Source of the DNA: Eubacteriales bacterium
Lineage (GTDB): Bacteria > Bacillota > Clostridia > Oscillospirales > CAG-272
DNA length: 34,761 nt
Assembly: GCA_045636245.1 (NCBI GenBank)
Contig: JAZTXA010000094.1
Location: 1 to 34,761, forward strand
Direction: 5' to 3'
How positions within the stretch are numbered: position 1 is the first letter of the stretch; each line of letters begins with the position of its first letter. Below are positions 2,570 to 32,514 of the stretch, one piece after another. The translations under genes were made by a program, and so were the position numbers. The notes below the pieces were generated by a model, which worked only from the letters and a program-made list of their open reading frames with translations, was not told the origin of the DNA and ran no database searches.

Positions 2570-3961
2570 ATGAAAAAAACACGGTTTTTGTGCTTTTGTC
2601 TTGCATTTTTGGCATGCATTATGGCATATCCCGTATCGGCATCCGATTCCCCCGCGTACAAACAGCTTTTGGCTGAAAACCCCGTTTATATCAAAAATGT
2701 AACACTTGATGAGCTGTACGGTTTTTACGAAAATGCATCTGTTGATGAAATATTTGACCCCGCGGAAAACAATTTCACAATGGGCGATGTGACAGTCGGC
2801 GGTGTCCCCGTTGAATGTTACGTATATATGCGTACTTTTTCGATAACGGATATTTCAAATTATACTATTGACGAAGCAAAAGCTTTGGCGGACGAAATGT
2901 TTTCTTCCATCAAATCATCACTTTCTTCAAAATATGTCAAATGCATCGCACGCTCTTACAGCATCAATATTTCCGGTGTGCCGGATAAGCTGAACAACGT
3001 ATATAAATCGTTCACCGTGAAGTTTCTTATCGCAACAGGCGAAAGTAACGAAGAAAGGGCAGAGGTCATTACAGACTTTGTGCGCCCGACGCTTGCACAG
3101 TGGGAGGGCTTTTCCGAGGGTGACAAATTCAAAAAGCTTAATGCGTTTATCTTAAACGGACAGTTTTCTTACGATATGACGTTTTTCAACCGTTCAAGCG
3201 TGTATTCCTTTATAACCGATAAAAAGGGCGTTTGTGAGGAATATGCAGGGCTGACAGCACTGTTTCTTGATGAAATGGGGTACAAGAACCGCATTATCAC
3301 GGGCGTATCGGGAGATCTTATGCACGTATGGAACATCGTTTATATAAACGGCCGTCCGTATCATCTTGACATTTTGCACAACGGTCCGATTAATGAAAAC
3401 GGTGAACATGTTAAAACAACAAGGGATTACCTGTTGGTTTCGACCGAGGCTGTCATGAATAACAGAGTGCCGGATGAAAAGCACAGTGAGATATGCAATG
3501 TGGCTGTGTATGACTATATTTTTGAGGGTGCACCGACTCATATACCGAGCGAGTTTTTCAAAGTGGAAAACGGAATGATGTCGCGTATTCCGCTTTTTTC
3601 AAGTGTTTCGTATATAAAAACACAGCTCTCGCTTGATGGTGAGTTTTTCAAATTTATCGGAACAGACGGAAACGAAATGAAGGACGAAGATACTGTCGGC
3701 TCCGGCTGCAGGCTTGTGCTTGCGGTAAACGGCGGCGTTGTTCAGTCGCTTACCTTGTGTATTGACGGCGATGTTGACGGTGACGGAATCATTACCGACA
3801 GCGATATTGCACTTATTAAAGATGTGATTTTGAGGAAAAACACGGAAACTGTGTCACGTTTTTCGCCGTTTTGCGATATAAACGAGGACGGCGCTGTGAC
3901 TGTAAGCGACTTTCTTTGCTTTTCAAGACTTAAAGATTCAATAACAACTTATCACGGATAA
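2570..3961 (+). CDS. Secreted transglutaminase-like (Cys-His-Asp) protein with C-terminal dockerin
   Basis: Signal peptide (..PVSA). GVCEEYA...HVWNIV...YHLD triad. Duplicated dockerin repeats GDVDGDGIITDSDIALIK and DINEDGAVTVSDFL. Confidence 0.85.
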   Translation: MKKTRFLCFCLAFLACIMAYPVSASDSPAYKQLLAENPVYIKNVTLDELYGFYENASVDEIFDPAENNFTMGDVTVGGVPVECYVYMRTFSITDISNYTIDEAKALADEMFSSIKSSLSSKYVKCIARSYSINISGVPDKLNNVYKSFTVKFLIATGESNEERAEVITDFVRPTLAQWEGFSEGDKFKKLNAFILNGQFSYDMTFFNRSSVYSFITDKKGVCEEYAGLTALFLDEMGYKNRIITGVSGDLMHVWNIVYINGRPYHLDILHNGPINENGEHVKTTRDYLLVSTEAVMNNRVPDEKHSEICNVAVYDYIFEGAPTHIPSEFFKVENGMMSRIPLFSSVSYIKTQLSLDGEFFKFIGTDGNEMKDEDTVGSGCRLVLAVNGGVVQSLTLCIDGDVDGDGIITDSDIALIKDVILRKNTETVSRFSPFCDINEDGAVTVSDFLCFSRLKDSITTYHG

Positions 3962-3964
3962 ACG

Positions 3965-4897
3965 ATGAAAAGGATATTAATTTTATTTGCGGTGATTTCC
4001 GCACTTATTTTAAACACTTATGCGCACAGCGCATTTTTTACCCTGTCCGGGGAAAGTGTAACGGCAAATTCCGTTTTCAAGGTCCGCATCTCTGCACGTA
4101 TTTCCGAAGCGGAAGTGATGCCGGATACCGAAACGGATGTAGTCCTCCCCGATGTTACAGGTGACACGGAACAGCTTCCCGAGATATCTGATACGCAGGA
4201 AGAAACGCTGTTTGATGAAACGGTATATGCTGAAATTCCTGAGTTTTACACAGATCAAACAGAATTACTCACCGAAACGGCGGAAGATACCGATATTGAC
4301 ACCGATACAGGTGCTCACACGGGTGTGCTCGGCGGTGAGGGTACGCTCGTTTTCGATAAAGCAAAGCTTAAGATAGTTTCAGTAACTGCGTGCGCACCCG
4401 AAGGTATAACGGTCGAACACGGAAATGCGGACGGCTTTTACAGATTTATGTTTTATTCCGATGAGGAAATAGAGTCAGATATTCCGCTTATGGATATAGA
4501 ATTTCAGATACTTACAGGTGAAGGGACTGTGTCGGTTATCATTTCCGAGGGGCTTTTTTCCGATGGCAACTATGACACTCCTTCCGAAAATGTATCTTTC
4601 ACAGTTATTTACGGCACAGCTGAAACAAATACGCCGTCAACCCACGACCCGCAGGATTCAACGGTGTTCCCTGTGACATCCGTCATATCCGAATTTTCGC
4701 CCGATACTGAGGGAAAAGACGGTGATACGCACAAAAACACCGATACACCGACGCTTGACCGTTTATCAACATCATCCGATCCCACCGATGTTACCGATGA
4801 AAGATCGGTCTTGCCCGTTATAATCGCTGTTACAGCCGCGGCTGTTGCTGCTGTCGGTGCAGCGGTCATACTGATAACCAAGAAAGTGAAAAAATAA
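3965..4897 (+). CDS. Membrane-anchored cohesin-like protein
   Basis: Signal peptide; cohesin-like beta-strand pattern (FKVRISA / GVLGGEGTLVFDKAKLKIVSV / YRFMFYS / LMDIEFQIL / SEGLFSDG); S/T/D/P-rich stalk; C-terminal hydrophobic helix plus KKVKK. Starts 3 bp after the dockerin gene. Confidence 0.65.
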   Translation: MKRILILFAVISALILNTYAHSAFFTLSGESVTANSVFKVRISARISEAEVMPDTETDVVLPDVTGDTEQLPEISDTQEETLFDETVYAEIPEFYTDQTELLTETAEDTDIDTDTGAHTGVLGGEGTLVFDKAKLKIVSVTACAPEGITVEHGNADGFYRFMFYSDEEIESDIPLMDIEFQILTGEGTVSVIISEGLFSDGNYDTPSENVSFTVIYGTAETNTPSTHDPQDSTVFPVTSVISEFSPDTEGKDGDTHKNTDTPTLDRLSTSSDPTDVTDERSVLPVIIAVTAAAVAAVGAAVILITKKVKK

Positions 4898-7136: not shown

Positions 7137-8720
7137 TCAAAGGCGTTCCGATGCATATTCGTCATATGTTGTTGCCTTGTCGTAGAAGCTTCCGGGGGTA
7201 AGATCGATTATTCTGTTTGCTATCGTTTGCACAAACTGATGGTCGTGAGAGGTAAACAGAACTGTCTGCGGATATTTTATAAGCCCGTCGTTAAGTGCTG
7301 CGATGGATTCAAGATCAAGGTGGTTCGTCGGCTCGTCAAGTATAAGAACGTTTGCGCCCGACAGCATCATCTTGCAAAGCATACAGCGTACGCGCTCGCC
7401 TCCTGAGAGGACACCGACACTCTTAAGCGCCTCATCTCCCGAGAAAAGCATTCTGCCCAGCCAGCTTCTGACATCTGCTTCATATATAAGATCACTGCAG
7501 TTTCTTATCCAATCAATAAGGTTTTCCGTGTGTCCGTCAAAATATTCGGAGTTGTCAGACGGCATATACGCCTGCGTTGTGGTAACGCCCCACTTGTAAG
7601 TACCTGAATCGGGCTCAAGCTCACCGCAGATTATCTTGAAAAGCGTCGTTATTGACACGGGATCGCCGACAAATGCAACCTTTTCGCACGGACGGAGCGT
7701 GAAGCTTACGTTGTCAAGCACCTTTTTGTCACCGACCGTTGCGGTGATTCCGTCAACCGTGAGCATATCCTTGCCCGCTTCTCTGTCAGGCTTGAATGCA
7801 ACGTACGGGAAACGGCGGGAGGAAACGGGCATTTCGGCAAAATCAAGGGAGTCAAGCAGCTTTTTTCTGCTTGTTGCCTGCTTTGATTTTGAAGCGTTTG
7901 CCGAGAAACGCGCAATAAATTCTTTAAGTTCAGCCGCCTTAAGCTCCGCCTTCTTGTTCTGCTCACGCATCTGTCTTTGGCGTATCTGTGTGTATTCGTA
8001 CCAGAAATCATATCCGCCGACGGTCATTGTTATCTTGCCGAAGTCAACGTCAACTGTGTGCGTGCAGACGTTGTTGAGAAAGTGACGGTCATGCGATACG
8101 ACAATAACAACGCTGTGCAGATCCATGAGAAATTCCTCAAGCCATGCGATGGTCTTGAGATCAAGGTGGTTGGTCGGCTCATCCATCAGAAGTATGTCGG
8201 GATTGCCGAAAAGTGCCTGTGCAAGCAGTATTTTAACCTTTTGGTCACCGTTTAAGTCCTTCATTAAAGCGTAGTGAAGGTCGTTGGGGATGCCGAGGGC
8301 GTTGAGCAGTATCTCCGCATCGCTTTCTGCGGAATATCCGTCAAGCTCCGCATATCTTGTTTCAAGCTCGCAAAGGCGTATGCCGTCCTCATCGGTCATT
8401 TCTTCCTTTGCATAAAGAGCTTCCTTTTCGTCCTCTATCTCGCAAAGCTCGGGATTTCCCTTAAGCACCGTTTTTATAACGGTGTATTCATCAAATGCAA
8501 AGTGATCCTGCTTGAGAATTGAAATTCTTTCTCCCGGGGTAACGGATACCGTGCCGCTTGACGGCTCCACTTCTCCCGATAAAATCTTCAAAAACGTGGA
8601 TTTACCCGCACCGTTTGCACCTATTATGCCGTAGCAGTTGCCCTTCGTGAATACAAGATCGGCACCGGAAAAGAGCACCCTGCCGCCATACTGTAAAGAA
8701 ACATCATTTGTTGATATCAT
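7137..8720 (-). CDS. ABC-F family ATPase (YkpA/YbiT-like)
   Basis: Two ABC domains and no TM helices: GANGAGKST, DEPTNHLD twice, LSGGE; linker ARFSANASKSKQATSRKK. The second Walker A is degenerate. Confidence 0.93.
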   Translation of the reverse strand: MISTNDVSLQYGGRVLFSGADLVFTKGNCYGIIGANGAGKSTFLKILSGEVEPSSGTVSVTPGERISILKQDHFAFDEYTVIKTVLKGNPELCEIEDEKEALYAKEEMTDEDGIRLCELETRYAELDGYSAESDAEILLNALGIPNDLHYALMKDLNGDQKVKILLAQALFGNPDILLMDEPTNHLDLKTIAWLEEFLMDLHSVVIVVSHDRHFLNNVCTHTVDVDFGKITMTVGGYDFWYEYTQIRQRQMREQNKKAELKAAELKEFIARFSANASKSKQATSRKKLLDSLDFAEMPVSSRRFPYVAFKPDREAGKDMLTVDGITATVGDKKVLDNVSFTLRPCEKVAFVGDPVSITTLFKIICGELEPDSGTYKWGVTTTQAYMPSDNSEYFDGHTENLIDWIRNCSDLIYEADVRSWLGRMLFSGDEALKSVGVLSGGERVRCMLCKMMLSGANVLILDEPTNHLDLESIAALNDGLIKYPQTVLFTSHDHQFVQTIANRIIDLTPGSFYDKATTYDEYASERL

Positions 8721-12382: not shown

Positions 12383-13695
12383 ACCGTTCATATGTAAACG
12401 TGATCGGCGCAGGTCTTGCGGGATGCGAGGCGGCATATCAGATTGCAAAGCGCGGTGTCAAGGTAAGGCTTTACGAAATGAAGCCCGAAAAAAAGTCACC
12501 TGCGCATAAAAGTAATATGTTCGCGGAGCTTGTTTGCTCAAACTCCCTGCGCTCGCTTCAGATATTCAACGCCGTCGGACTTCTTAAAGAAGAAATGCGC
12601 CGTCTTGACTCGCTTATAATGCGTGCGGCGGATGAAACAGCCGTGCCCGCAGGCGCATCACTTGCCGTTGACAGAGATAAATTTTCCGCATATATAACAA
12701 ACGAAATAAAAAATAACGAAAATATTGAAGTCATATCAGGTGAGGTCACGGAAATTCCAAAGGATGAAATAACCGTTATTGCGACGGGACCACTGACCTC
12801 CGATGCTTTGAGCGAAAAAATAAAAGCGCTTGCAGGTGAAGGACTTCACTTCTTCGATGCCGCCGCCCCTATCGTGTCGGCAGATAGCATTGACCGTGAC
12901 ATCACCTTTGAGCAGTCGCGCTACGACAAGGGTGAGGCGGCATATATAAACTGCCCGATGACGAAGGAAGAGTACGAAGTGTTTTATAACGCTTTGATAA
13001 CTGCGGACACAGCTGAGCTTCACGGCTTTGAAAAAGAACCGAATGTTTTTGAGGGCTGTATGCCTGCCGAGGTTATGGCAAAGCGCGGGTTTGAAACGCT
13101 TTTGTTCGGCCCGATGAAGCCCGTCGGACTTACAGACCCGAAAACGGGCAAAGAACCGTATGCCGCAGTTCAGCTAAGGGCTGAAAACCTTGAAAAAACG
13201 ATGTACAATATCGTCGGTTTTCAGACGCATCTGACGTTTGGTGAGCAAAAAAGGGTGTTTTCAATGATACCCGGCTTGCAGAATGCCGAATTCTTACGCT
13301 ACGGCGTGATGCACAGAAACACATATATCAATTCCCCCGGCTTTCTTGATGAAACATATATGGTTAAAAACACCCCCGGACTGTTCTTTGCAGGACAGAT
13401 AACGGGTGTTGAAGGGTATGTGGAGTCATCCGCCTCGGGTCTTCTTTGCGGAATAAATGCCGCAAGATTTGCAAAAGAGTCGGAACCGTTTGTTTTCTCC
13501 GATGTGTCTGTCATAGGCTCCATGGCGAAGTACGTGTCAAGCTATAACGGCGCTGATTTCCAACCTATGAATGCCAATTTCGGCATCATCGCCCCGCCTG
13601 ACAGAAAAGTAAAGGGCGGCAAACGCGGCAGATACGATTATTACGCCGTGCGTGCGCTTGAATATATTGATTCTTTAAAGGATTTAATTCCTTAA
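12379..13695 (+). CDS. trmFO: FAD/folate-dependent tRNA (uracil-54-C5) methyltransferase
   Basis: [46 protein letters not shown] 12379 forms an ATGA overlap with the topA stop. Confidence 0.97.
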
Positions 13696-13698
13696 ACC

Positions 13699-13793
13699 GT
13701 GATCGCCGAAGGCGATTACTTCACAGTGCGTAAGCACTGCTTCACACAGCGCAGCTGTGCTTCATATCACGAGCGTGCGAGTGCTGCTTCATT
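13699..13793. repeat. Array of four mini-hairpins each followed by CTTCA
   Basis: GATCGCC-GAA-GGCGATT, CAGTGC-GTAA-GCACTG, CACAGC-GCA-GCTGTG and an imperfect fourth. CTTCA at 13719, 13740, 13760 and 13787. Confidence 0.8.
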
Positions 13794-13811
13794 AAACAAA
13801 CCAAACTCGAA

Positions 13812-22766: not shown

Positions 22767-25169
22767 ATGAAATACGATTACACAGGTATTGAGAAAAAAT
22801 GGCAGGACAGATGGGAAGAAAACCACGCTTTTGAAGCGAAGAACGATTATACGCTTCCCAAGTATTACGCGCTTATCGAATTCCCCTATCCCTCCGGACA
22901 AGGTCTTCACATAGGACATCCCCGTCCTTACACAGCACTTGACATCGTTTCGCGTAAGAAGCGTATGCAGGGCTACAACGTCCTTTTCCCTATGGGCTGG
23001 GATGCTTTCGGTCTGCCGACTGAAAACTATGCTATCAAGAACAAAATTCACCCCGCAAAGGTTACGGAAGTAAACGTCGCAAAATTCAAAAAGCAGCTCA
23101 AAATGCTCGGTCTTTCCTTTGACTGGTCACGTGAAATTGACACAACAGACCCGAACTACGTAAAATGGACACAGTGGATATTCCTCCAGCTTTACAAAAA
23201 GGGCTTGGCATACAAAAAGGAAATGTCCGTTAACTTCTGTACATCCTGTAAGGTCGTTTTGGCAAACGAAGAGGTTGTAAACGGCGTTTGTGAGCGTTGC
23301 GGATCGGAAGTAATCAGAAAGGTCAAGAGTCAGTGGATGCTCAAAATTACAGAGTATGCAGACAGACTTATCGACGACCTTGAAGGTCTTGACTTTATTG
23401 AAAGAGTAAAGACACAGGAGATCAACTGGATCGGCCGTTCTTACGGTGCGGAGGTCAAGTTTGAAACGACAGAGGGCGACACAATAACTGTCTACACAAC
23501 ACGCCCCGATACGCTTTTCGGTGCAACATATATGGTTATCGCACCCGAACACGCACTTGTTGAAAAGTGGAAGTCCTCCCTTAAAAATTACGATGATATC
23601 ATCAAATATAAAGAAGATGCCGCAAAGAAGTCCGACTTTGAAAGAACAGAGCTTGTTAAGGACAAAACCGGCGTTATGCTTGACGGTGTCAAGGCAATTA
23701 ACCCCGTAAACGGCAAGGAAATTCCGATATTCGTTTCCGACTACGTGCTTGCTACATACGGCACGGGTGCTATCATGGCGGTTCCCGCACACGACACACG
23801 TGACTGGGAATTTGCAAAGAAATTCGACCTTCCCATAATCGAGGTAGTTGCAGGCGGCGACGTTCAGAACGAAGCTTTCACAGACGTTGAAACAGGTGTT
23901 ATGGTAAACTCGGGCTTCCTTGACGGTATGCAGGTTGCAGAAGCAAAAGAAGCAATAATCAAGTTCTTAACAGAAAAAGGCATAGGCGAAAAGAAGACAA
24001 ACTATAAGCTCCGTGACTGGGTATTCTCCCGTCAGAGATACTGGGGCGAGCCCGTGCCGCTTGTATACTGTGAAAAGTGCGGCTGGGTGCCGATACCCGA
24101 AGAACAGCTCCCCTTAACGCTTCCCGATGTTGAAGCGTATGAGCCTACGGATACGGGCGAATCCCCCTTGGCAAAGGCAACGGATTGGGTAAATACAACT
24201 TGTCCCGCTTGCGGCGGCCACGCAACAAGAGAAACTGACACAATGCCGAACTGGGCAGGCTCGTCATGGTACTTCTTGCGCTACTGTGACCCGAAGAACA
24301 ACGATGCACTTGCCGCAAAGGAAGCGCTTGACTATTGGATGCCCGTTGACTGGTACAACGGCGGTATGGAGCATGTAACACTTCACCTTCTTTACTCACG
24401 TTTCTGGGCAAAGTTCCTTTATGATATCGGCGTTCTTTCCTGTAAAGAACCGTACAAGAAGCGTACAGCGCACGGTATGATACTCGGTGAAAACGGCGAA
24501 AAAATGTCGAAATCGAGAGGAAATGTTATCAACCCCGATGATATCGTAAGAGATTACGGCGCTGACTCCCTCCGTCTTTACGAAATGTTTATAGGTGACT
24601 TTGAAAAGTCCGCACCCTGGTCACAGGCAAGCATCAAGGGCTGTAAGAGATTTTTGGAAAGAGTTGCATCTATCCCCGATATGGTTAAGGGTGAAGGTGT
24701 AACACCGTCACTTGAGGTATCGTTCCACAAGACAATAAAGAAGGTCACAGAAGATATTGACAATATGAAGTTCAATACGGCTATTGCCGCTATGATGAGC
24801 CTCTTGAATGAGATATCCGACGCAGGTTCACTTACAAAGGACGAGGCAAAAACATTCGTAACGCTTCTGTGTCCGTTTGCCCCCCACCTTTGTGAGGAGC
24901 TTTGGGAATACTTCGGCGGCGAGGGCTTCTGTTCCTACGCAAAATGGCCCGAATATGACGAAGCAAAGACAGTTGACAGCACGGTTGAAATAGGTGTTCA
25001 GGTCAACGGTAAAATGAGAGGAACTGTAACGATTCCGAAGGATTGCGATAAGGACACTGCTATGGCGGCAGTTATGGCAAATGAAAGAATTGCAGAGCTT
25101 ATTACGGGAAAGACAGTCGTTAAAGAGATCTACGTCCCCGGAAAGATATTCAATATCGTTGTAAAATAA
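22767..25169 (+). CDS. leuS: Leucine--tRNA ligase
   Basis: [18 protein letters not shown], editing domain TTRPDT/GTGA, KMSKS, VQVNGK. Confidence 0.98.
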
Positions 25170-25219
25170 GCGTTTGTCATATATTTGTCGCATTTTCTGA
25201 AAAAAATAGAAAAAAATAC

Positions 25220-25248
25220 TTGACAATTTAGCGTTTTCGTTATATAAT
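25220..25248 (+). promoter_or_regulatory. Consensus sigmaA promoter of rpsU
   Basis: TTGACA (25220-25225), 17-bp spacer, TATAAT (25243-25248), with an A-rich UP-like tract upstream. Confidence 0.88.
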
Positions 25249-25288
25249 AACACGCAGATGGTTTAAATGCGAAGGGAGGGAATACAAA

Positions 25289-25465
25289 ATGGCAGAAGTC
25301 AGAGTTAAAGAAAACGAAACACTTGACAGTGCTCTTCGCAGATTTAAAAGACAGTGCGCACGTTCCGGAGTTCTTACGGAGCTTCGCAAGAGGGAGCATT
25401 ACGAAAAGCCCAGCGTAAAGCGTAAGAAGAAGTCCGAGGCAGCGAGAAAGCGCAAGTACAAGTAA
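25289..25465 (+). CDS. rpsU: 30S ribosomal protein S21
   Basis: Translated by hand: [58 protein letters not shown] (58 aa, absent from the ORF track); GGGAGG RBS. Confidence 0.97.
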
Positions 25466-25498
25466 TTCGTACACCGAAAGCTTTTAAACTTGAACTTA

Positions 25499-25536
25499 AA
25501 AAGCACTTATGATACAAATGTGTCATAAGTGCTTTT
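25499..25536 (+). terminator. Intrinsic terminator after rpsU
   Basis: AAAAGCACTTATGATAC-AAAT-GTGTCATAAGTGCTTTT. Confidence 0.8.
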
Positions 25537-25876
25537 GCGTTTTATAAGGTGATTTGAAAGTATATGTCACAAAAATTCCGCAAGCTCATACAATAAAATC
25601 GGTACCGTAAAAGAAAAATGATTTTTTGACTTATATAATAAAACACATTTTTGGATAAAATATGCAAATAACGCCGTGTTTCGGCAAACTGTTTTTTATG
25701 CCTCATAATATGTAAAATAATCGTTAATTTATCTAACTGCCCCTTTTAAAAATTATACAAATATGGTATAGTTATGTAGAATGTGTTTTTATGCTTTTTT
25801 CATGGTGCCGTAATACGGCGGCTTGCGTGCACCTTTATATATATTACGTGTTTTGCTGTCGGGAAACGGACTTTTT

Positions 25877-27166
25877 ATGGAGAATATTGTTATAAACGGC
25901 GGAAATAAGCTGTTCGGCGAAATAGAAGTCAGTGGAATGAAAAATGCCGCTGTGGGAGTTATTCTTTCCTGCTTGCTCGTCAAGGATACCTGTACCATTG
26001 AAAATCTTCCGAACATAAGCGATGTTATGGCATCGTTTGATATACTTGAAAGCATGGGTGCTGTTGTCAAGCGCCTGTCCGAAACAACTATACAGGTGAA
26101 CTGTACGAACTGTAAATGCGGTACATCCCCGTATGAGCTTGTGCGTAAAATGCGCGCATCATATTATCTTATAGGTGCGGAGCTTGGCAGATTCCACCGT
26201 GCTTCCGTTGGCTGTCCCGGCGGATGCGATTTCGGTGTACGCCCGATTGACCAGCATATAAAGGGCTTTGAAGCACTCGGTGCAAAGGTTTCTGTTGAAG
26301 GCGGATACGTTGAAGCTGTGGCTGAAAACGGTATGATCGGCAATCAGGTGTATTTTGACGGTGTTTCAGTCGGCGCAACGATGAATATCATTATTGCTGC
26401 CGTGCTTGCACAGGGCACAACCGTGATTGAAAATGCGGCAAGAGAGCCTCATATTGTCGACCTTGCAAACTTCCTCAATACGTGCGGTGCAAAGATAACG
26501 GGCGCAGGTACGGATGTTATCAAGATAAAAGGTGTTGAAGCCCTCCACGGCTGTACGTATGCGATAATCCCCGATATGATAGAAGCGGGCACATTTATGA
26601 TCGCGGCGGCGGCAACGGGAGGCAGACTTAAAATAAATAATGTTATTCCCAAGCACCTTGAATCCATAAGCGCAAAGCTTGAGGAAATGGGTGTCACTGT
26701 TGAGGAGCTTGACGATGCCGTTATCGTTTCACGCGACGGTGAGCTTACAAATGTAAATATAAAAACCATGCCGTATCCCGGCTTCCCCACTGATATGAAT
26801 CCGCAGATGTGTGCGCTTTTGTGCCTTGCCAGCGGTACGAGCAGGCTTACAGAAAGCGTATGGGATACGAGATTCCGTTATGTTGAGGAGTTGAAGCGCA
26901 TGGGCGCCTCCATAAAGGTTGACGGTAAGGTTGCTGTTGTGGAAGGTCCCGTTACATTTTCCGCGGCACCCGTCAGGGCGGTTGACTTGCGCGCAGGGGC
27001 GGCTGTCATAATTGCAGGTCTTGCTGCAAAGGGCAGAACGGTGATTGACGACATATACCACATCAAGCGCGGATATGAGGATATCGTAGGCAAGCTCAGG
27101 GCTGTCGGCGCGGATATAAAGGAAGTCACAAGACCCGATCCCGTGCATTACGAAAAAGCAAATTAA
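25877..27166 (+). CDS. murA: UDP-N-acetylglucosamine 1-carboxyvinyltransferase
   Basis: SGMKNA, MRASY, PGGCDFGVRP (active-site Cys retained), PGFPTD, DLRAGA; start set at ATG 25877. Confidence 0.97.
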   Translation: MENIVINGGNKLFGEIEVSGMKNAAVGVILSCLLVKDTCTIENLPNISDVMASFDILESMGAVVKRLSETTIQVNCTNCKCGTSPYELVRKMRASYYLIGAELGRFHRASVGCPGGCDFGVRPIDQHIKGFEALGAKVSVEGGYVEAVAENGMIGNQVYFDGVSVGATMNIIIAAVLAQGTTVIENAAREPHIVDLANFLNTCGAKITGAGTDVIKIKGVEALHGCTYAIIPDMIEAGTFMIAAAATGGRLKINNVIPKHLESISAKLEEMGVTVEELDDAVIVSRDGELTNVNIKTMPYPGFPTDMNPQMCALLCLASGTSRLTESVWDTRFRYVEELKRMGASIKVDGKVAVVEGPVTFSAAPVRAVDLRAGAAVIIAGLAAKGRTVIDDIYHIKRGYEDIVGKLRAVGADIKEVTRPDPVHYEKAN

Positions 27167-27176
27167 CAATTAATAT

Positions 27177-27202
27177 AAAAAATCCCCCGGCGGGGATTTT
27201 TT
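27177..27202 (+). terminator. Intrinsic terminator after murA
   Basis: AAAAAATCCCC-CGGC-GGGGATTTTTT. Confidence 0.85.
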
Positions 27203-27240
27203 GTTTGTTTTATTAAATGTTTGCTTGAGATTTGACATTA

Positions 27241-27293
27241 TATATTTCCGAAGGAAATATGCGCACCCCCGCCGTGGGGGGGCGGGGATGCGC
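27241..27293 (+). repeat. ATATTTCC-GNA-GGAAATAT dispersed element (copy 3)
   Basis: TATATTTCC-GAA-GGAAATATG followed by a GCGCA-CCCCCGCC...GGCGGGG-ATGCGC stem. Confidence 0.8.
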
Positions 27294-27347
27294 TTGTTTG
27301 AAAATGATGTGATTTAAAAATCAATGATGTGCCGCAAGCGGTTTGAT

Positions 27348-27428
27348 GTATTTACCTCGCAAATGTGAAGCAAGCTCCGTTTTTGAAACGGAACTTGTGA
27401 TTTAAGGAATAATTATTGTCTATTATTT
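27348..27428. repeat. Left direct repeat of the 1.22-kb cassette
   Basis: Core 27359-27417 matches 28579-28637 at 57/59 nt; contains the hairpin CAAGCTCCGTTT-TTG-AAACGGARCTTG. Confidence 0.9.
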
Positions 27429-27476
27429 ATTTCAGTGATAACACGGGATATATCATTTGTTTAAGTGAGATAATAA

Positions 27477-28203
27477 TTACCAAGAAAGATCAAAGCTTGC
27501 CCGAAAAGGTTTTCTTTCTTTGTTTACAAGAAAGTCGATCGTAATGTCAATATTAGTAGGTTTTTGTACGCCTAAATCCTTCAAAGGAATTTTTACCCCG
27601 AATCCTGTCAGTGATCCATCATTATACACCTTTTTGGAGGTGTAAATTACCTTTATCGGAATGGTTTTGTCAAATGTATCATTGATCGACGCAGTGCCGA
27701 AATCTCCGTAAAATTCTATTTCATATTTCGATTTACATCCAAGATACATATTGACATTCAGATATCCGTTTTCTACCCATACATCAGAAAAACCTTTTGT
27801 ACCTCGACTGTCATCTGCATCTGACTGCCAAATAAAATCTTCGATACCTTCGATATTCGACATTCTACCGACAGAATCGGAAAGAACATAATAAGCAGGT
27901 CCTTTGCACACATAAAGTGTAACGGGGATACCTTCTTCCACTTCACTGCCGATGGCAGGTTCGGTGCGGATAACCAAATTGCAGTGATAATCGTTATTGT
28001 ATTCATATTCCACTCTTGGTATCAAGCCCTTATTTAATAAAAGAGTTTTGGCGGTGTTTACATCTGATTTTTCAATATCGGGAATTTTTACTGTTTTTAC
28101 AGTCGGTAAATTTGTTTCATGAGTTTTCAGACATGCACATATGCTTGTACAACAAAAAAAACACCATTACTAAAGAAATCATACGATAAAATGCTTTAAC
28201 CAG
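27477..28203 (-). pseudogene. PASTA-domain lipoprotein, frameshifted (+1) at a T8 tract in the signal peptide
   Basis: The frame continues upstream of ORF 28025 as VKIPDIEKSDVNTAKTLLLNKGLIPRVEYEY...VIRTEPAIGSEVEEGIPVTLYVCKG (PASTA). The signal peptide MISLVMVFF is in another frame; removing one base from A8 (28154-28161) joins it to CCTSICAC (lipobox). Span is 727 nt = 3n+1. Confidence 0.75.
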
Positions 28204-28222
28204 TTAAATCACCCTTATAAGA

Positions 28223-28277
28223 TTTATGTAACAAAATGTTACATAAACAGCATAACATAATGTTACAATAAAGTCAA
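28223..28277 (-). promoter_or_regulatory. sigmaA promoter overlapped by twin palindromic operators
   Basis: Minus strand TTGACT (28277-28272), 17-bp spacer, TG-n-TATGCT (28254-28249). Operators TTTATGTAACA-AAA-TGTTACATAAA (28223-28247) and TAACA-TAA-TGTTA (28253-28265). Confidence 0.75.
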
Positions 28278-28288
28278 GGGGTGATTAT

Positions 28289-28492
28289 GTGATCGGGTTG
28301 AAAAAAATTCGCAAACAACGAAAACTCAGCCAGCAAAAGATTGCTATGGATTTGAATATTTCAAGAGAAGCGTTGTCATATTATGAGAACGGAAAACGAG
28401 AACCGTCTTTAAGGCTTTTACTCCAAATGTCGGATTATTTCAATGTGTCAATAAATTATTTGATAACAGGCGAAGAATTTGAGAAAAAATGA
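28289..28492 (+). CDS. XRE-family HTH transcriptional regulator
   Basis: LKKIRKQRKLSQQKIAMDLNISREALSYYENGKREPS...YFNVSINYLITG; GTG start after AAGGGGTGA. Confidence 0.92.
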   Translation: MIGLKKIRKQRKLSQQKIAMDLNISREALSYYENGKREPSLRLLLQMSDYFNVSINYLITGEEFEKK

Positions 28493-28527
28493 ACCTATTT
28501 TTCTGAAGAAAATACAGGTTCATTTTT
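28485..28527 (+). terminator. Probable terminator after the XRE gene
   Basis: AAAAATGAACCT...AGGTTCATTTTT imperfect hairpin followed by a T tract. Confidence 0.6.
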
Positions 28528-28536
28528 GTTTTTTAG

Positions 28537-28648
28537 TGAAGCATCACTCGCACGCTTGTGATGAGAAGTATTTGCTTTGCAAATGTGAAGCAAGCTCCGT
28601 TTTTGAAACGGAGCTTGTGATTTAAGGAACAATTATTCTTTCTTATTT
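28537..28648. repeat. TGAAG-spaced hairpin array plus right direct repeat of the cassette
   Basis: 28537-28568 is an inverted near-copy of 13760-13791; 28568-28648 repeats 27348-27428 and probably contains the terminator of the NAGPA operon. Confidence 0.85.
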
Positions 28649-29878
28649 TATTGACAGCACAACTGCGTTTATGACAGGGCGGGGCTCGTCTCCGGGGTCA
28701 CAGGGGGTGTTTATGACTTTATATGCTCCGTCCTCTGTGCGTGCAACGAGCGTGGCAGAGCCGCCGCCGTCAACCAAAAACGCATTGTAAAGGTCAAGGT
28801 CGCGCGCCAAAACGGGCAGGTTTTGGGGATTTGAGCCGATGGAATCTTCACGGCGTCCGTCCATTGTGATGAACATCATAGTACCCTCTTTATCGCATCC
28901 GATGATAGTCGCGGGGTAGTTACAGCTCGGATCCTCGCCCGTGAGTACGCCTTGTTTTGCAAAGCAGATATGACCGCCGACAGCGTTTGTAATTTCCTGC
29001 CAGATTTTTGTGTCAATGTCTGCTGTGTCAACGACATTTACCGAAATTTCGATTTCGTCGTTTACATCGAAACTGTTTATAAGCGGTATTGCCTCACCCC
29101 TTGCGGTGAGAACTATTTGGTGTTCCTTTATTTTTTCGGGGTTTTCAGGTGTATCGGGTGAGAAAATCTTATCGACCTTTCCCGTTATAATTTCGCCGTG
29201 GCGCACCGTGTAGTCACAGCCTGTATTGATGCGCACTTCATACGCATCGTCAAGCGCATAGTCGCCCTCCGAAAGCAGTCTGTCCGTGTACATAATAAGC
29301 GCATTGTTTGCGGGCAGACGATTGAGTCCTTCAACCTCAACGGTAAGCCCTTTTGTAATGTTTTTCACCGTTATCTCGGCTGTGGGATTGCCCATTGCCA
29401 TACGTCCGTCGTCTGTGAAGCCGTATGCCCAGAACTCACCCTCAAACGGCGTTTCTTTAACGATATGTGCTGTTGAGATTATTTCACCGCCGTATATATT
29501 GAAGCCTCTCGGTGTTGTCATTGATTTTTTAACAACGGGGTCTGATGCGCCGCCGTATGACGTGCCCTTGCCCTCGACTCTTGCGTGCGCATACGAAACC
29601 ATCCACAAGTCGCCGTTTACGGCGGCTATAGGTGTCATGTCCGTTTCTTTGTCAAGTCTTTCGCAAAGCGTAGTAACCACGCGAAGCTCATTTGCGTATG
29701 TTGCGCAGGGCAAAACATCAACACGGAATTTTTCGTTTTTGGGGTCAAATTCAACAATGTTTATTTTGTTCGGACCGTAGGGCGAATCCTTCGGTGTCTG
29801 CACAAATGTTTTTCTTACGCCATCGCAAAGCATTACCGACTCGTTTTTGATCTGTCCTTGTAATTTTATATTTTTCAT
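28643..29878 (-). CDS. Phosphodiester glycosidase (NAGPA) family protein
   Basis: AAVNGD, AVGG, PATIIG, ITMDGR, NAFLVDGGGSATL, RPVINAV. Confidence 0.85.
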   Translation of the reverse strand: MKNIKLQGQIKNESVMLCDGVRKTFVQTPKDSPYGPNKINIVEFDPKNEKFRVDVLPCATYANELRVVTTLCERLDKETDMTPIAAVNGDLWMVSYAHARVEGKGTSYGGASDPVVKKSMTTPRGFNIYGGEIISTAHIVKETPFEGEFWAYGFTDDGRMAMGNPTAEITVKNITKGLTVEVEGLNRLPANNALIMYTDRLLSEGDYALDDAYEVRINTGCDYTVRHGEIITGKVDKIFSPDTPENPEKIKEHQIVLTARGEAIPLINSFDVNDEIEISVNVVDTADIDTKIWQEITNAVGGHICFAKQGVLTGEDPSCNYPATIIGCDKEGTMMFITMDGRREDSIGSNPQNLPVLARDLDLYNAFLVDGGGSATLVARTEDGAYKVINTPCDPGDEPRPVINAVVLSIK

Positions 29879-29891
29879 ATCAAACTCCGAT

Positions 29892-30311
29892 TTATTTACT
29901 TGTTAATGTGGCAAGCGCCTTTTTAAGCATTGTTGACGATGTGCCCTCGGTATAGGGGAAATATACGATTTCAACGCCGAAGGGCTTGAATTTTTCCTCA
30001 AGCTCATTGAAAAGGGGGGAGCCCTTCCAATCGTCTCCGACAAACATACGGTCGAACTTATATTCCTCCCAAGCCGCAAATTTATCACGGTGTGTCTGCG
30101 GTACGACCTTATCAACGTACTTTATTGCCTCTACTATCTGTACTCTTTCCTCAAATGAAATTACGGGAGTCTTGTTTTTGTACTGCATAACAAGCTCGTC
30201 TGTGCTGACACCGACGATGAGAAAATCGCATTTTTCTTTCGCGCGCTTCAAAATGTTCAGATGTCCTATGTGAAACAGATCGAATACGCCCGTTGTGTAA
30301 CCTATTATCAT
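29892..30311 (-). CDS. tagD: Glycerol-3-phosphate cytidylyltransferase-like protein
   Basis: TTGVFDLFHIGH, VGVSTDE, VGDDWKG, YTEGTSST; adjacent to a TagF-like gene. Confidence 0.85.
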   Translation of the reverse strand: MIIGYTTGVFDLFHIGHLNILKRAKEKCDFLIVGVSTDELVMQYKNKTPVISFEERVQIVEAIKYVDKVVPQTHRDKFAAWEEYKFDRMFVGDDWKGSPLFNELEEKFKPFGVEIVYFPYTEGTSSTMLKKALATLTSK

Positions 30312-30324
30312 TTTGGTACCTTCT

Positions 30325-31473
30325 TTACTTTGTTATTTCTTCTATTTTTTCGGAAAGTCTGCGGCACGATGTACCGTTTTCGTAGCTTCCTACATCCGCA
30401 AGAAATTTGTCGATTTTTTTTGTATAGCCCGCCTCGTCAAATTCCGTTATGCTTTCTATAAGTTTTGTGTTATCAAGCGCATAGGGGAAGGGCAGGTCGT
30501 TTATGTTAAAATAAAATCCTCTTTCATCCGAGAGGTATTTTTCCATATCGGGAACAAACAAAACGCACGGCTCTTTGCGTATTGCCATATCAAACATACA
30601 GGAAGAATAGTCCGTTATAAGCAGATTGCACGAGGCAATAAGCTCCTGTATATCTGGGTATGAGGTGGCATCGTATGCACCCTCACACGGTGGTGTTATA
30701 TCCTTCGCAACATTCGGATGCAAGCGGTACAGAAATGCCCAATTTCCGCCAAATTTTGCACGCAAAGCTTTTATAATTCCCTCACAGTCTATGCCGTGAA
30801 GCGCATCACATTCCGAATCCCTGAATGTCGGTGCGTAAAGTACGGTTTTTGTACCGTTTTCAAGGTTAAAATATGCACGCACCTTTTCCGTGCTGTCGCG
30901 GTTATCCTTAAAAAATATATCACACCTCGGTGTGCCGCTTTCCAAAATATCCCCGTCATACCAAAAGGAATTTTTGAAAATATTCGTGCTGAATTTACAG
31001 CCCGAAACGATGAGATCGCATTTGTCGGAATCCTCTTTTGCGTGTTTAGCGTAATCTTCACCGAGAAATTGTACGGCATCGCCCTCGATTTTCTTAAGTC
31101 TTATGGAGCTGTGCCACGTCTGTATGTAAAACTGTCCTTTTCTTTTGTTCCAAAAATGTATCTTGCCTGTTCTGATGTTGGAAATTATTATTTTTGCCGT
31201 TGAAATTTCTTTAAGATACTGTGTTGAAAAGTGCGGTACGGTACGCACACCCTTCGGAAGATCCACAGGCGGTGATTTTGTTCTGTCATATACCCACACT
31301 ATATCGTATTTACCGGGGTAATTTTTACATAAATATTCAATTATATACTTCGGACTGTCGCCAAAGCCCTTGAAAACACTGTTCCAAGCGATTATTTTGT
31401 TCTTTTTTATCGGTAAAAGCCCGTAAAATCCAAGATATGCTTTATGCCGTAACTCTTTAATTTTCGCAATCAT
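30325..31473 (-). CDS. CDP-glycerol glycerophosphotransferase family protein (TagB/TagF-like)
   Basis: DSPKYI, IQTWH, GTPRCD, LYAPTFR, RLHP, ITDYSSCMFD. Confidence 0.92.
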   Translation of the reverse strand: MIAKIKELRHKAYLGFYGLLPIKKNKIIAWNSVFKGFGDSPKYIIEYLCKNYPGKYDIVWVYDRTKSPPVDLPKGVRTVPHFSTQYLKEISTAKIIISNIRTGKIHFWNKRKGQFYIQTWHSSIRLKKIEGDAVQFLGEDYAKHAKEDSDKCDLIVSGCKFSTNIFKNSFWYDGDILESGTPRCDIFFKDNRDSTEKVRAYFNLENGTKTVLYAPTFRDSECDALHGIDCEGIIKALRAKFGGNWAFLYRLHPNVAKDITPPCEGAYDATSYPDIQELIASCNLLITDYSSCMFDMAIRKEPCVLFVPDMEKYLSDERGFYFNINDLPFPYALDNTKLIESITEFDEAGYTKKIDKFLADVGSYENGTSCRRLSEKIEEITK

Positions 31474-31479
31474 TTTAAT

Positions 31480-32514
31480 TTATTTTCCGTATTTTAAAAG
31501 GAAAAGCACCTTTCTGAAAATTCTTATGAAAATATTTGACTGATGAGTAAAAATGAATGTCGAAAGCCTCGGCGACATCATTGTAAGGTCCAAGTAATAT
31601 TTGTCATCACCGTTTGTATTTTTATACCAAACGGTCTTTTTATAGTCGGGAACACGCTTTTTTATACTTTCCTTGATATTGTAAAGCTTGCCTATTTCCT
31701 CGCGGTCGTAATTTGCAAAGCAGGTGTAAAGAATGTTCGATGTGCTCATACCCAAAAATTTTGCGTTGACCGCATCTTTGTGTTTTTCGTAAAGATCTCT
31801 TTCGACACAGTCGTCAAAAATTCTGTCGGTGATTTTGAGACGCTCAAATTTACGCTTGTCCTTTTTGTTTCTTGTCGTGGAGTTCGGGCTTTGGTAATAG
31901 CAATAGAAAAATCCGTCTGTTTTGCGTATTTCCTCAGCGTAAATACCTGTCATAAAGTTAAACCATGCATCCTCAAAAAACAGCTTTTCGGGGAAAAATA
32001 AATTGTTTTTGATAAGAAAATCGCGTTTATATATCCTTGTCCAGAAAAGACCGCATGAGGATATATATTTGAGTCTTTTTTTCTCATCCATAATTCCCAC
32101 ATCGTCTGATGTATACGGCAAGACTTTGTTTTCCTCTTGTCCGTTTTTCTCGAATATGCAATAGTCCCCGCCCGATAAATCCGCACCTTTTGCGTTTTCA
32201 TACAGTGCTCGGCACATATCATCTTTTATAAAGTCATCGCTGTCCAAGAAAAGCAGGTATTCACCCCTCGCTTCTCTTATTCCGACGTTTCTTGCCCCTC
32301 CCTGACGCAGGTTTTCGGGCAGATATATTCCACGGAATCTGCCGGAGTACTTTTCGGCATACCGCCTTATTATATCGGCGCTGTTATCTGTCGATAGATC
32401 GTCAATGGCGATTATCTCAATTTCGCCAAGAGTCTGTGAAAGACAGCTGTCGAAACATTTGTCCAAATACTGTGAGGTATTGTGAACGGGAATTATTATG
32501 CTGACCTTAACCAT
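31480..32514 (-). CDS. Family 2 glycosyltransferase
   Basis: KVSIIIPVHN, IDDLSTD, GGARNVG, FLDSDD, FFED; ATG 32514 after GGAGG. Confidence 0.92.
   Translation of the reverse strand: MVKVSIIIPVHNTSQYLDKCFDSCLSQTLGEIEIIAIDDLSTDNSADIIRRYAEKYSGRFRGIYLPENLRQGGARNVGIREARGEYLLFLDSDDFIKDDMCRALYENAKGADLSGGDYCIFEKNGQEENKVLPYTSDDVGIMDEKKRLKYISSCGLFWTRIYKRDFLIKNNLFFPEKLFFEDAWFNFMTGIYAEEIRKTDGFFYCYYQSPNSTTRNKKDKRKFERLKITDRIFDDCVERDLYEKHKDAVNAKFLGMSTSNILYTCFANYDREEIGKLYNIKESIKKRVPDYKKTVWYKNTNGDDKYYLDLTMMSPRLSTFIFTHQSNIFIRIFRKVLFLLKYGK

Follow-up and report, generated by a model that had tools for sequence, protein, structure and literature searches.

Repetitive extragenic palindromic (REP) sequences, bacterial interspersed mosaic elements (BIMEs) and the concept of REP doublets forming hairpins (REPINs) that are linked to REP-associated tyrosine transposases (RAYTs) offer one frame for small hairpin repeats, as set out in PMC3337134 and PMC3116915. 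The Neisseria minimal mobile elements (MMEs), defined in PMC3898611, offer another. dusA-specific islands encode a dedicated integrase (PMC4482086). Here we compare these systems, as well as integrons and IS200/IS605 insertion sequences (ISs), with a two-gene interval in a 34,761-nt stretch of DNA (hereafter the window) from an Eubacteriales bacterium (assembly GCA_045636245.1, contig JAZTXA010000094.1). A gene for an XRE-family regulator and a divergent gene for a PASTA-domain lipoprotein lie there between two hairpin-containing direct repeats. An initial annotation of this DNA took the pair for a self-regulated mini-cassette captured at the repeats. The explanation that we favor, with a probability of about 0.5, is an accessory, recombinase-free islet of regulator and lipoprotein lying between two locally copied or homogenized REP/BIME-like arrays at a rearrangement hot spot. 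The repeats themselves are probably ordinary local copies and not a special gene-capture site.

The genome (G000) is assembled to 1.84 Mb in 197 contigs, is about 86% complete and has a GC content of 0.426; its contig C94 contains the window. We refer to genomes by G-numbers, to loci or contig stretches of relatives by L-numbers and to contigs of G000 by C-numbers; L022 and L044 both denote the G009 locus. The same-genus comparison set comprises ten genomes besides G000, or 11 with it.

Direct Repeats and Their Hairpins

The two repeats are parts of two hairpin arrays:

27293..27428, + strand, left hairpin array (nhmmer E 3.3e-26); its 3' part, 27345-27428, is one copy of the direct repeat
28528..28648, + strand, right TGAAG hairpin array (nhmmer E 3.4e-30); 28565-28648 is the other copy

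A repeat search of positions 26000-30000 returned a single long direct-repeat family, consisting of these two 84-nt copies, which are 89% identical and start 1220 nt apart. BLAST within the genome placed a 59-nt core at 96.6% identity (57/59) at 27359-27417 and 28579-28637, and the longest exact run common to both copies is 34 nt and ends at 27392. Both copies include a long hairpin, whose arms lie at 27371-27397 in the left one and at 28591-28617 in the right one. The right-copy hairpin has a perfect 13-bp stem; the left one has a single C/A mismatch on the plus strand, corresponding to G-T on the minus strand, which folds with 12 pairs. The right array as a whole has a predicted folding energy of -22 kcal/mol (z -5.0).

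Identity between the left and right arrays is 71% across the whole array and 96.6% in the last hairpin module, which is the only module common to both; their 5' parts are unrelated. Upstream of the repeat, the left array consists of TGATG-spaced hairpins and the right one alone is a true TGAAG array, whose first TGAAG hairpin is present in the segment to the left of the repeat. Compared over the whole array, the right copy is nearer to a copy on C114 (80%) than to the left copy. The initial annotation had described repeats of 57/59 nt, extendable to about 80 nt and 1220 bp apart, and our coordinates agree. It had also joined each repeat to the end of a TGAAG array and to a hairpin with a 12-bp stem; the hairpin is indeed in both copies, but the left upstream part is the unrelated TGATG-spaced one.

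A neighboring phosphodiester glycosidase (NAGPA) family gene takes its last codon and its stop codon (28643-28648) from the right repeat copy. The NAGPA ortholog of G009 continues for seven more codons into unrelated sequence (28643-28648 against L014 1-45), from which it follows that in G000 the array or repeat took the place of the original 3' end of the gene.

An Rfam scan of 26500-29500 gave nothing near the gathering score. When the two intergenic regions were compared by BLAST with the 197 contigs, only C94 itself and other members of the array family were returned, with no contig showing an alternative junction. No public sequencing run was listed for positions 26900-29100. Chimeric assembly via the repeat was considered and rejected, mainly since the repeat is short (84 nt) and imperfect (89%). 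The contig names of related records point to assemblies at k=141, these names not being those of G000 itself.

The Regulator-Lipoprotein Pair

Four features were recognized between the arrays:

27477..28182, - strand, PASTA-domain lipoprotein gene, frameshifted, in two reading frames (PASTA E 1.5e-8)
28229..28266, no strand assigned, two operator-like palindromes TAACA(A/T)AATGTTAC, 24 nt apart, in the divergent promoter region
28289..28492, + strand, gene for an XRE-family helix-turn-helix (HTH) regulator of 67 aa (HTH_3 E 9.4e-18)
28485..28527, + strand, inverted repeat with 18-nt arms (89%) followed by a T-run, 3' of the XRE gene

The lipoprotein gene is broken by a frameshift at a run of eight A residues (28154-28161). 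The signal-peptide frame runs from 28182 down to a stop at 28119-28117 and reads MISLVMVFFLLYKHMCMSENS before that stop. The mature frame is open from just past a stop, via a lipobox-like CCTSICAC, down to 27477. In G009 the ortholog is an intact lipoprotein of 241 aa, with which the mature window protein shares 85% identity over 213 aligned aa (82% by protein search of the family genomes). From its sequence, the window gene looks like a pseudogene or a phase-variable gene.

When the intact ortholog was modeled with AlphaFold (pLDDT 85), it showed a signal helix and an N-terminal PASTA fold like the PASTA domains of PrkC/PknB. The C-terminal beta-sandwich gave only weak fold matches, of the CBM21, NEAT and adaptin-ear types (TM <=0.3), too weak to assign it a function. 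The protein may be a self-repressed surface protein that binds peptidoglycan or another glycan, and it would be inactive or phase-off in G000. Searches of phage and plasmid collections returned just one partial PASTA-domain match each and no full-length lipoprotein match, and the lipoprotein has no match in PHROG. The XRE protein does match phage regulator families. PADLOC gave PASTA-region matches to PD-T4-6 models and generic HTH matches, with no specific match to a defense system.

Two copies of the palindrome TAACAnAATGTTAC lie between the divergent genes of the window, in their promoter region, where 0.06 are expected, and the operator-like palindrome is kept between the two genes both in G009 (L022) and in L048, which belongs to another genus. 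The inverted repeat 3' of the XRE gene falls within the segment homologous to G009 (27456-28534). The palindromes support a self-contained, self-regulated accessory module. GC content is 0.32-0.39 inside the interval and 0.43-0.54 in the upstream murA gene (mostly 0.48-0.54).

These results confirm the low GC content relative to murA described in the initial annotation and support its reading of the pair as a self-regulated unit. It was also right in finding only the XRE gene and the divergent PASTA-domain gene between the repeats; the frameshift in the latter is a correction to it.

A Family of TGAAG Hairpin Arrays

The arrays around the pair belong to a small family in G000. A profile search found eight members. 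C94 has three of them (13677-13800, 27293-27423 and 28528-28643) and C114 another three, and the remaining two are on C65 and C171. The third member in the window was recorded as follows:

13677..13800, - strand, TGAAG-family array (nhmmer E 4.4e-13)

In the family, TGAAG precedes each of four different hairpins, which are followed by a conserved tail, TGATTTAAGGAATAA. When ten copies were aligned, 92.9% of the cells in the four helices were paired, against 28-49% with the partner slid. Compensatory changes were found in 11 of the 28 array pairs, and none of 500 shuffles reached the observed covariation score, which was obtained on related sequences with the structure drawn from one of them.

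Most of the other copies that were read follow the end of one gene and have their tail next to the 3' end of another that converges on it; for at least the C65 copy, the other side abuts a gene start. The arrays mostly occur alone and not as ends of an element. Matches to the array were found in five of the 11 genomes of the genus, with seven in G000 in this search and one to three in each of the four others, and several matches in relatives are single modules standing alone. A related family of TGAAAT-type arrays is more abundant: G008 and G009 have 19 and 17 matches, respectively, mostly to that family and with matches in genes included.

Candidate mobilizing enzymes are encoded in the genome. 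Three proteins score 68.8, 59.3 and 60 bits (E 1e-16 to 1e-19) against the NCBIfam RAYT model NF047646, whose cut-off is 80, and a fourth RAYT-like protein has only a weak Y1_Tnp match. The RAYT-like or IS200-like Y1 relatives were located on C191 (two genes), C137 and C114 (2340-2858). No array lies directly beside any of the three RAYT-like genes checked, and one C114 RAYT-like gene is 1.8-3.4 kb from two arrays. A RAYT-like remnant in G002 occupies the same core-gene block as the C137 gene, pointing to vertical inheritance.

Sister Repeats Around Core Genes

Near-identical repeats at neighboring intergenic sites are not confined to the XRE-lipoprotein pair. A genome-wide search for repeat pairs 200-8000 nt apart gave 34 direct and 3 inverted pairs. 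The recF-dnaN-dnaA genes are bracketed by a 131-nt repeat on C100 (4191-4321 and 8675-8805; L089), 93.9% identical over 131 nt and 99.1% over 109 nt, which has only these two full copies in the genome. On C67, spoIIIAA-AB is bracketed by a 65-nt repeat at 92%, the two copies being each other's best match. An inverted pair of TGAAG arrays on C114 (134 nt, 92.5%) brackets a gene for a 697-aa protein. Since essential operons are not captured cassettes and yet have sister repeats on both sides, bracketing is no mark of a captured cassette; nor can a single crossover insertion produce the inverted pair. Sister repeats of this kind are thus a general feature of this genome and probably arise via local copying or gene conversion.

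Several further repeats came to light. TGAAAT-type arrays are near the C100 repeat, at about 8561-8643 and 12797-12882. An 85-nt segment of C137 (103-187) recurs at 100% identity at the ends of about 15 other contigs and, together with its flank, occurs twice within C137:1-289; it resembles a sequencing adapter and looks like library adapter or another assembly artefact. The ends of C138 (1-131 and 4873-5003) share the same 131 nt, which would fit a circular molecule of about 4.87 kb, such as a small plasmid or phage, or an assembly overlap.

Distribution of the Gene Pair

The pair is accessory and non-syntenic. Among 40 relatives searched with 3.3 kb of window DNA, only G009 matched the cassette (84%, window 27456-28534), and of the ten other same-genus genomes it alone has the pair, at another locus. 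At the protein level, 20 of 301 family genomes match the lipoprotein at E <=1e-5. Full-length matches are confined to five (G000, G076, G268, G113 and G240), and the rest are PASTA domains of proteins of 236 to 791 aa. L046, L047, L048, L053 and a few distant loci came from scans of public contigs; a metagenome scan gave 8 loci, few of them informative. A homolog of the 67-aa XRE protein adjoins the lipoprotein gene in L044 (L022/G009), L046, L048, L050 and L055-57. In all, the pair or the lipoprotein gene is found at at least six different loci, including:

G000: between murA and the NAGPA gene
G009: beside a sodium:alanine symporter-like gene
L045, L046, L048, L051, L053: directly upstream of spoVT
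L047, L049, L050: three further contexts

GC content of the pair and its neighbors was computed in the window and at four related loci (L047-L050), at all four of which the pair is below most neighboring genes. No recombinase was seen in the open reading frame (ORF) lists of the six related loci inspected; most neighbors were read from such lists without a family search. The whole G000 assembly has one gene with a tyrosine recombinase domain (PF00589), on contig C197, and none is among the ORFs listed for window positions 24000-32000.

Flanking repeats around the pair differ from locus to locus:

Window: 59 nt, 96.6%, spacing 1220 nt
L044 (G009): 102 nt, 98%, spacing 1289 nt; 121 nt at 93% in the extended repeat search
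L045: 34 nt, 94%, spoVT 5' end; 3707-3740 and 4835-4868
L046: 83 nt, 82%, spoVT 5' end; 3395-3477 and 4761-4843
L051: 101 nt, 97%; 3453-3553 and 7825-7924, bounding a 4.4-kb island with Fic-family and permease genes

L053 has spoVT-like fragments on both sides, and L047-L050 have no flanking repeat. In G009, the flanks belong to a different, TGAAAT-spaced array family, and relative to the cassette they point the other way. G008 is 96% identical to G009 from a point within the last hairpin on, and it has neither array nor cassette. A clean empty site for the G009 insertion was not found, the other flank of G008 not being syntenic with G009.

At the spoVT loci, the repeats correspond to the 5' coding end and promoter region of spoVT, and the spoVT gene stays intact. 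In genus g63, repeats of the spoVT 5' end also bound different islands upstream of that gene in species that lack the pair (G155, 40 nt at 100%, G326 and G313; none in G328). This site looks like an insertion hot spot with repeat-bounded islands. Around variable recombinase-free islands in several genera, the relatives L064, L066 and L067 included, the spoVT 5' end is duplicated with its promoter region and its first 30-100 nt or so of coding sequence. Their cargo varies by species: the XRE-PASTA pair, Fic-family and permease genes, an 857-aa protein, a 605-aa protein or an acyltransferase-like gene. The 5' ends of spoVT/AbrB-type genes are themselves multi-copy in those genomes.

The murA-NAGPA Junction

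The following neighboring features frame the islet:

25823..27166, + strand, murA, UDP-N-acetylglucosamine 1-carboxyvinyltransferase family (PF00275 E 1.9e-97)
27175..27204, + strand, terminator-like hairpin and T-run after murA, 13 pairs with a T-rich tail
27230..27293, no strand assigned, unrelated higher-copy intergenic repeat with the hairpin ATATTTCCGAAGGAAATAT and a G+C-rich hairpin at 27261-27293
28643..29878, - strand, NAGPA (phosphodiester glycosidase) family gene (PF09992 E 4.6e-21)

Orthologs of murA, the conserved neighbor on the left, are 75-91% identical in same-genus genomes, and the real start of the gene may lie downstream of the listed TTG. The NAGPA gene, conserved on the right with orthologs at 82-85% in relatives, opens a cell-wall glycopolymer gene cluster. 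The ATATTTCCGAAGGAAATAT repeat (27230-27273) matches more than 20 other contigs at 93-100% and is the most abundant small repeat that we noticed in G000.

Gene order between these two genes varies among relatives. In G002, a 12-kb core-gene block separates murA from the NAGPA gene (L015 1642-13669); as named from sequence reading, it contains aminoacyl-tRNA synthetase-like genes, the RAYT-like remnant and a terminal rlmH-like gene. The orthologs of this block in G000 sit on C158 and C137, the last one being followed by another gene. In G004 (L020) and G006 (L018), the sequences as read place the block end (the rlmH-like 3' end) against murA in inverted orientation. The ends of the block carry small repeats, including a AGTTGAAAGT-type microsatellite. 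What follows murA and what follows the NAGPA gene varies from species to species among those read, and both flanks are rich in other small repeats. In eight other same-genus genomes that match both genes, G010 included, murA and the NAGPA gene are on different contigs, and G005 and G007 gave no NAGPA match. In the explanation that we favor, the islet is thus at a junction prone to rearrangement, with murA on one side and the cell-wall polysaccharide cluster on the other. The initial annotation had suggested looking in relatives for an empty site, with one repeat between murA and the NAGPA gene; none of the genomes having both genes shows them adjacent, the two being 12 kb apart in G002 or on different contigs.

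Origin of the Islet and Its Repeats

We propose that the two genes make up a 1.1-kb islet, horizontally mobile or accessory, in which an XRE repressor with its own operators would stand beside a divergent surface lipoprotein gene. It may have been transferred and then integrated through homologous or illegitimate recombination. Where a divergent pair comes between convergent genes, two convergent junctions result, the kind of site at which most such arrays occur, and here each of the two bears an array. The near-identity of the last module only could then stem from local copying or gene conversion between neighboring repeats, and a RAYT-like enzyme or gene conversion may spread the arrays more generally. 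Homologous recombination of the RecA type between the repeats could delete the islet, which the 34-nt exact run makes plausible.

Some observations weigh against local copying around an accessory islet. Direct repeats bracket the cassette at five of nine distinct loci, which is more often than we would expect of incidental bracketing, although G009 is rich in repeats and the four spoVT loci possibly represent one ancestral event. The flanking arrays of G009 are 98% identical over 102 nt, and other copies in that genome reach at most 89%. Unique 5' parts with a shared 3' module would also fit a single crossover between a cassette-borne and a chromosomal array. Local copying is, moreover, a reading of sequence patterns, drawn from one genome of this species and from relatives in others.

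The crossover just mentioned is part of a possible, though rather unlikely, history in which incoming or circular DNA with the pair and its own TGAAG array recombined with the array downstream of murA, either by a homologous crossover in the last module or by Y1/RAYT-type cleavage and joining at TGAAG, in the manner of IS200/IS605-like palindrome-associated elements. IS200/IS605 ends are direct-orientation hairpins preceded by the same short oligonucleotide, and both ends here likewise have direct-orientation hairpins after the same pentanucleotide. Capture of this kind would leave a hybrid left and a hybrid right array, and the reverse reaction would excise a circle. It would account for the mosaic identity, with unrelated 5' parts and a last module at 96.6%, and for the first TGAAG hairpin to the left of the right repeat, which is placed as if in a cassette-borne array; in both G000 and G009, moreover, the flanking copies are each other's closest relatives, and RAYT-like genes are encoded in the genome. 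These genes are not flanked by arrays, however, and no cassette-borne site is conserved, as the array families and orientations differ between G000 and G009 and the other loci have spoVT fragments or nothing. Nor does the assembly hold a contig with an alternative junction. Since single modules occur alone in relatives, the mosaicism needs no crossover with a cassette-borne array, and capture does not explain sister repeats around essential core operons in G000 or the inverted sister pair, which is beyond a single crossover. The proposal of the initial annotation that the repeat, and the hairpin family at large, serves for gene capture is therefore unsupported: one module is shared, other flanks differ and core genes are bracketed too. 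The picture against which it had set this proposal, a high-copy element inserted twice around syntenic genes, does not describe the locus either, the family having 8 copies and the pair being non-syntenic.

Another possibility is that the islet entered whatever target was present and duplicated 34-130 nt of it, by the filling-in of staggered breaks or by replication template switching at hairpin-stalled forks. The repeats are locus-specific at five of the nine loci, being a TGAAG array in the window, a TGAAAT-type array at L044 and the spoVT 5' end at L045, L046 and L051, and the g63 islands upstream of spoVT are similarly bracketed in G155, G326 and G313, although not in G328. We nevertheless regard target duplication as improbable. 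Both window arrays are complete yet differ upstream of the repeat, where a simple duplication predicts otherwise; G008 has no array at the place equivalent to that in G009, so that the array would not be a pre-existing target, although the left flank there is non-syntenic. Four of the nine loci have no repeat, the spoVT cases perhaps go back to one ancestral event and the 5' ends of spoVT/AbrB-type genes are multi-copy anyway. We know of no enzyme that yields target duplications of 34-130 nt. The pair might also be what remains of a larger integrative element, such as a prophage or island, with the repeats as decayed attL and attR sites and the pair as a remnant like a lysogeny module with a lipoprotein of the superinfection-exclusion type. 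An XRE repressor beside a lipoprotein gene resembles prophage lysogeny modules, the match of the XRE protein to phage regulator families points the same way, and the repeat-bounded island at L051 is larger (4.4 kb, with Fic-family and permease genes). This origin is very improbable, however, for a two-gene unit that recurs at no fewer than six loci with no integrase or phage gene in six ORF lists, whose lipoprotein has neither a PHROG match nor a full-length phage or plasmid match and only PASTA-region matches in PADLOC, and whose genome has its sole tyrosine recombinase gene on another contig. Broader in scope is the idea that, in the uncultured gut Firmicutes of this family, one recombinase-free process inserts DNA with direct duplications of 34-130 nt, copies arrays to neighboring sites and moves small self-regulated islets, with multi-hairpin arrays and the spoVT 5' end as its hot spots. 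Y1/RAYT-type cleavage at sites of a motif plus hairpin or hairpin-provoked template switching are possible mechanisms of such a process, which we rate as quite doubtful.

If the arrays truly were sites of capture and excision, they would constitute an integrase-less analogue of integron attC in Firmicutes and a notable route of gene flow. On the reading that we prefer, local copies around an accessory islet, the locus exhibits a structured REP/BIME-like multi-hairpin family with RAYT-like genes in an uncultured Eubacteriales lineage. Its repeats tend toward near-identical copies at neighboring intergenic sites, even around dnaA, and the regulator-lipoprotein islet is small and widely scattered. 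Direct repeats around a low-GC gene pair are then, in repeat-rich genomes, no evidence of site-specific capture on their own. The recurring direct repeats around small islands in this bacterial family are the main lead that emerges.

Comparison with Described Systems

Integrons offer a parallel, as their cassettes too are small and have imperfect palindromes at their bounds that form hairpins and measure about 60-130 nt, and the idea that the interval could be excised as a circle fits integron behavior. The differences are that no IntI-type integrase is nearby, the sole PF00589 gene being on another contig, that the two genes are divergent and have their own promoters in place of co-oriented promoterless cassettes, that there is no cassette array and that the sites flanking the cassette differ from copy to copy. 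We rejected an integron on account of the missing adjacent IntI and the divergent, self-promoted genes.

The IS200/IS605 elements and palindrome-associated transposable elements (PATEs) are similar in having subterminal direct-orientation hairpins at both ends, each beside a short conserved oligonucleotide, and relatives of Y1 (HUH) transposases are encoded elsewhere in G000. Here, in contrast, the ends are not conserved among cassette copies and the arrays mostly stand alone.

The spoVT loci, and not the window site, recall islands that enter the 5' end of a gene and bring a replacement for it, such as the dusA-specific ones: each spoVT island has a duplicate of the 5' coding end and promoter of its target at its bounds, with the gene left intact. 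They differ in that no integrase was seen in the spoVT-associated islands examined.

With Neisseria MMEs, the islet shares the form of a small whole-gene cassette between conserved genes without its own recombinase; transformation with homologous recombination is the presumed route by which MMEs spread. In g63, the site upstream of spoVT, which has different cassettes in different species, is also MME-like. The MME definition has alternative cassettes between the same flanking genes, whereas here the same cassette is found at different loci, and direct repeats are outside that definition. Between murA and the NAGPA gene, moreover, relatives have the 12-kb core block (G002) in place of alternative cassettes.

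The arrays themselves depart from REPs and BIMEs in number, with 8 copies here and 0-3 in same-genus genomes as compared with tens to hundreds per genome, and in layout, the four array hairpins being co-oriented with four different stems and not inverted REP doublets. Classical REPs carry a GTAG motif, to which TGAAG is analogous but not identical. The RAYT-like genes score under the NCBIfam cut-off, and the three that were checked are unflanked by arrays; the papers listed by one full-text literature search for RAYT and Firmicutes were incidental mentions, with no study of such systems among them. What the arrays have in common with REPs and BIMEs is that they are short, extragenic, imperfect palindromes with a short conserved motif, here one of their own, beside each stem, gathered in mosaic intergenic clusters, with a structure kept by compensatory change and with single RAYT-like genes in the same genome.

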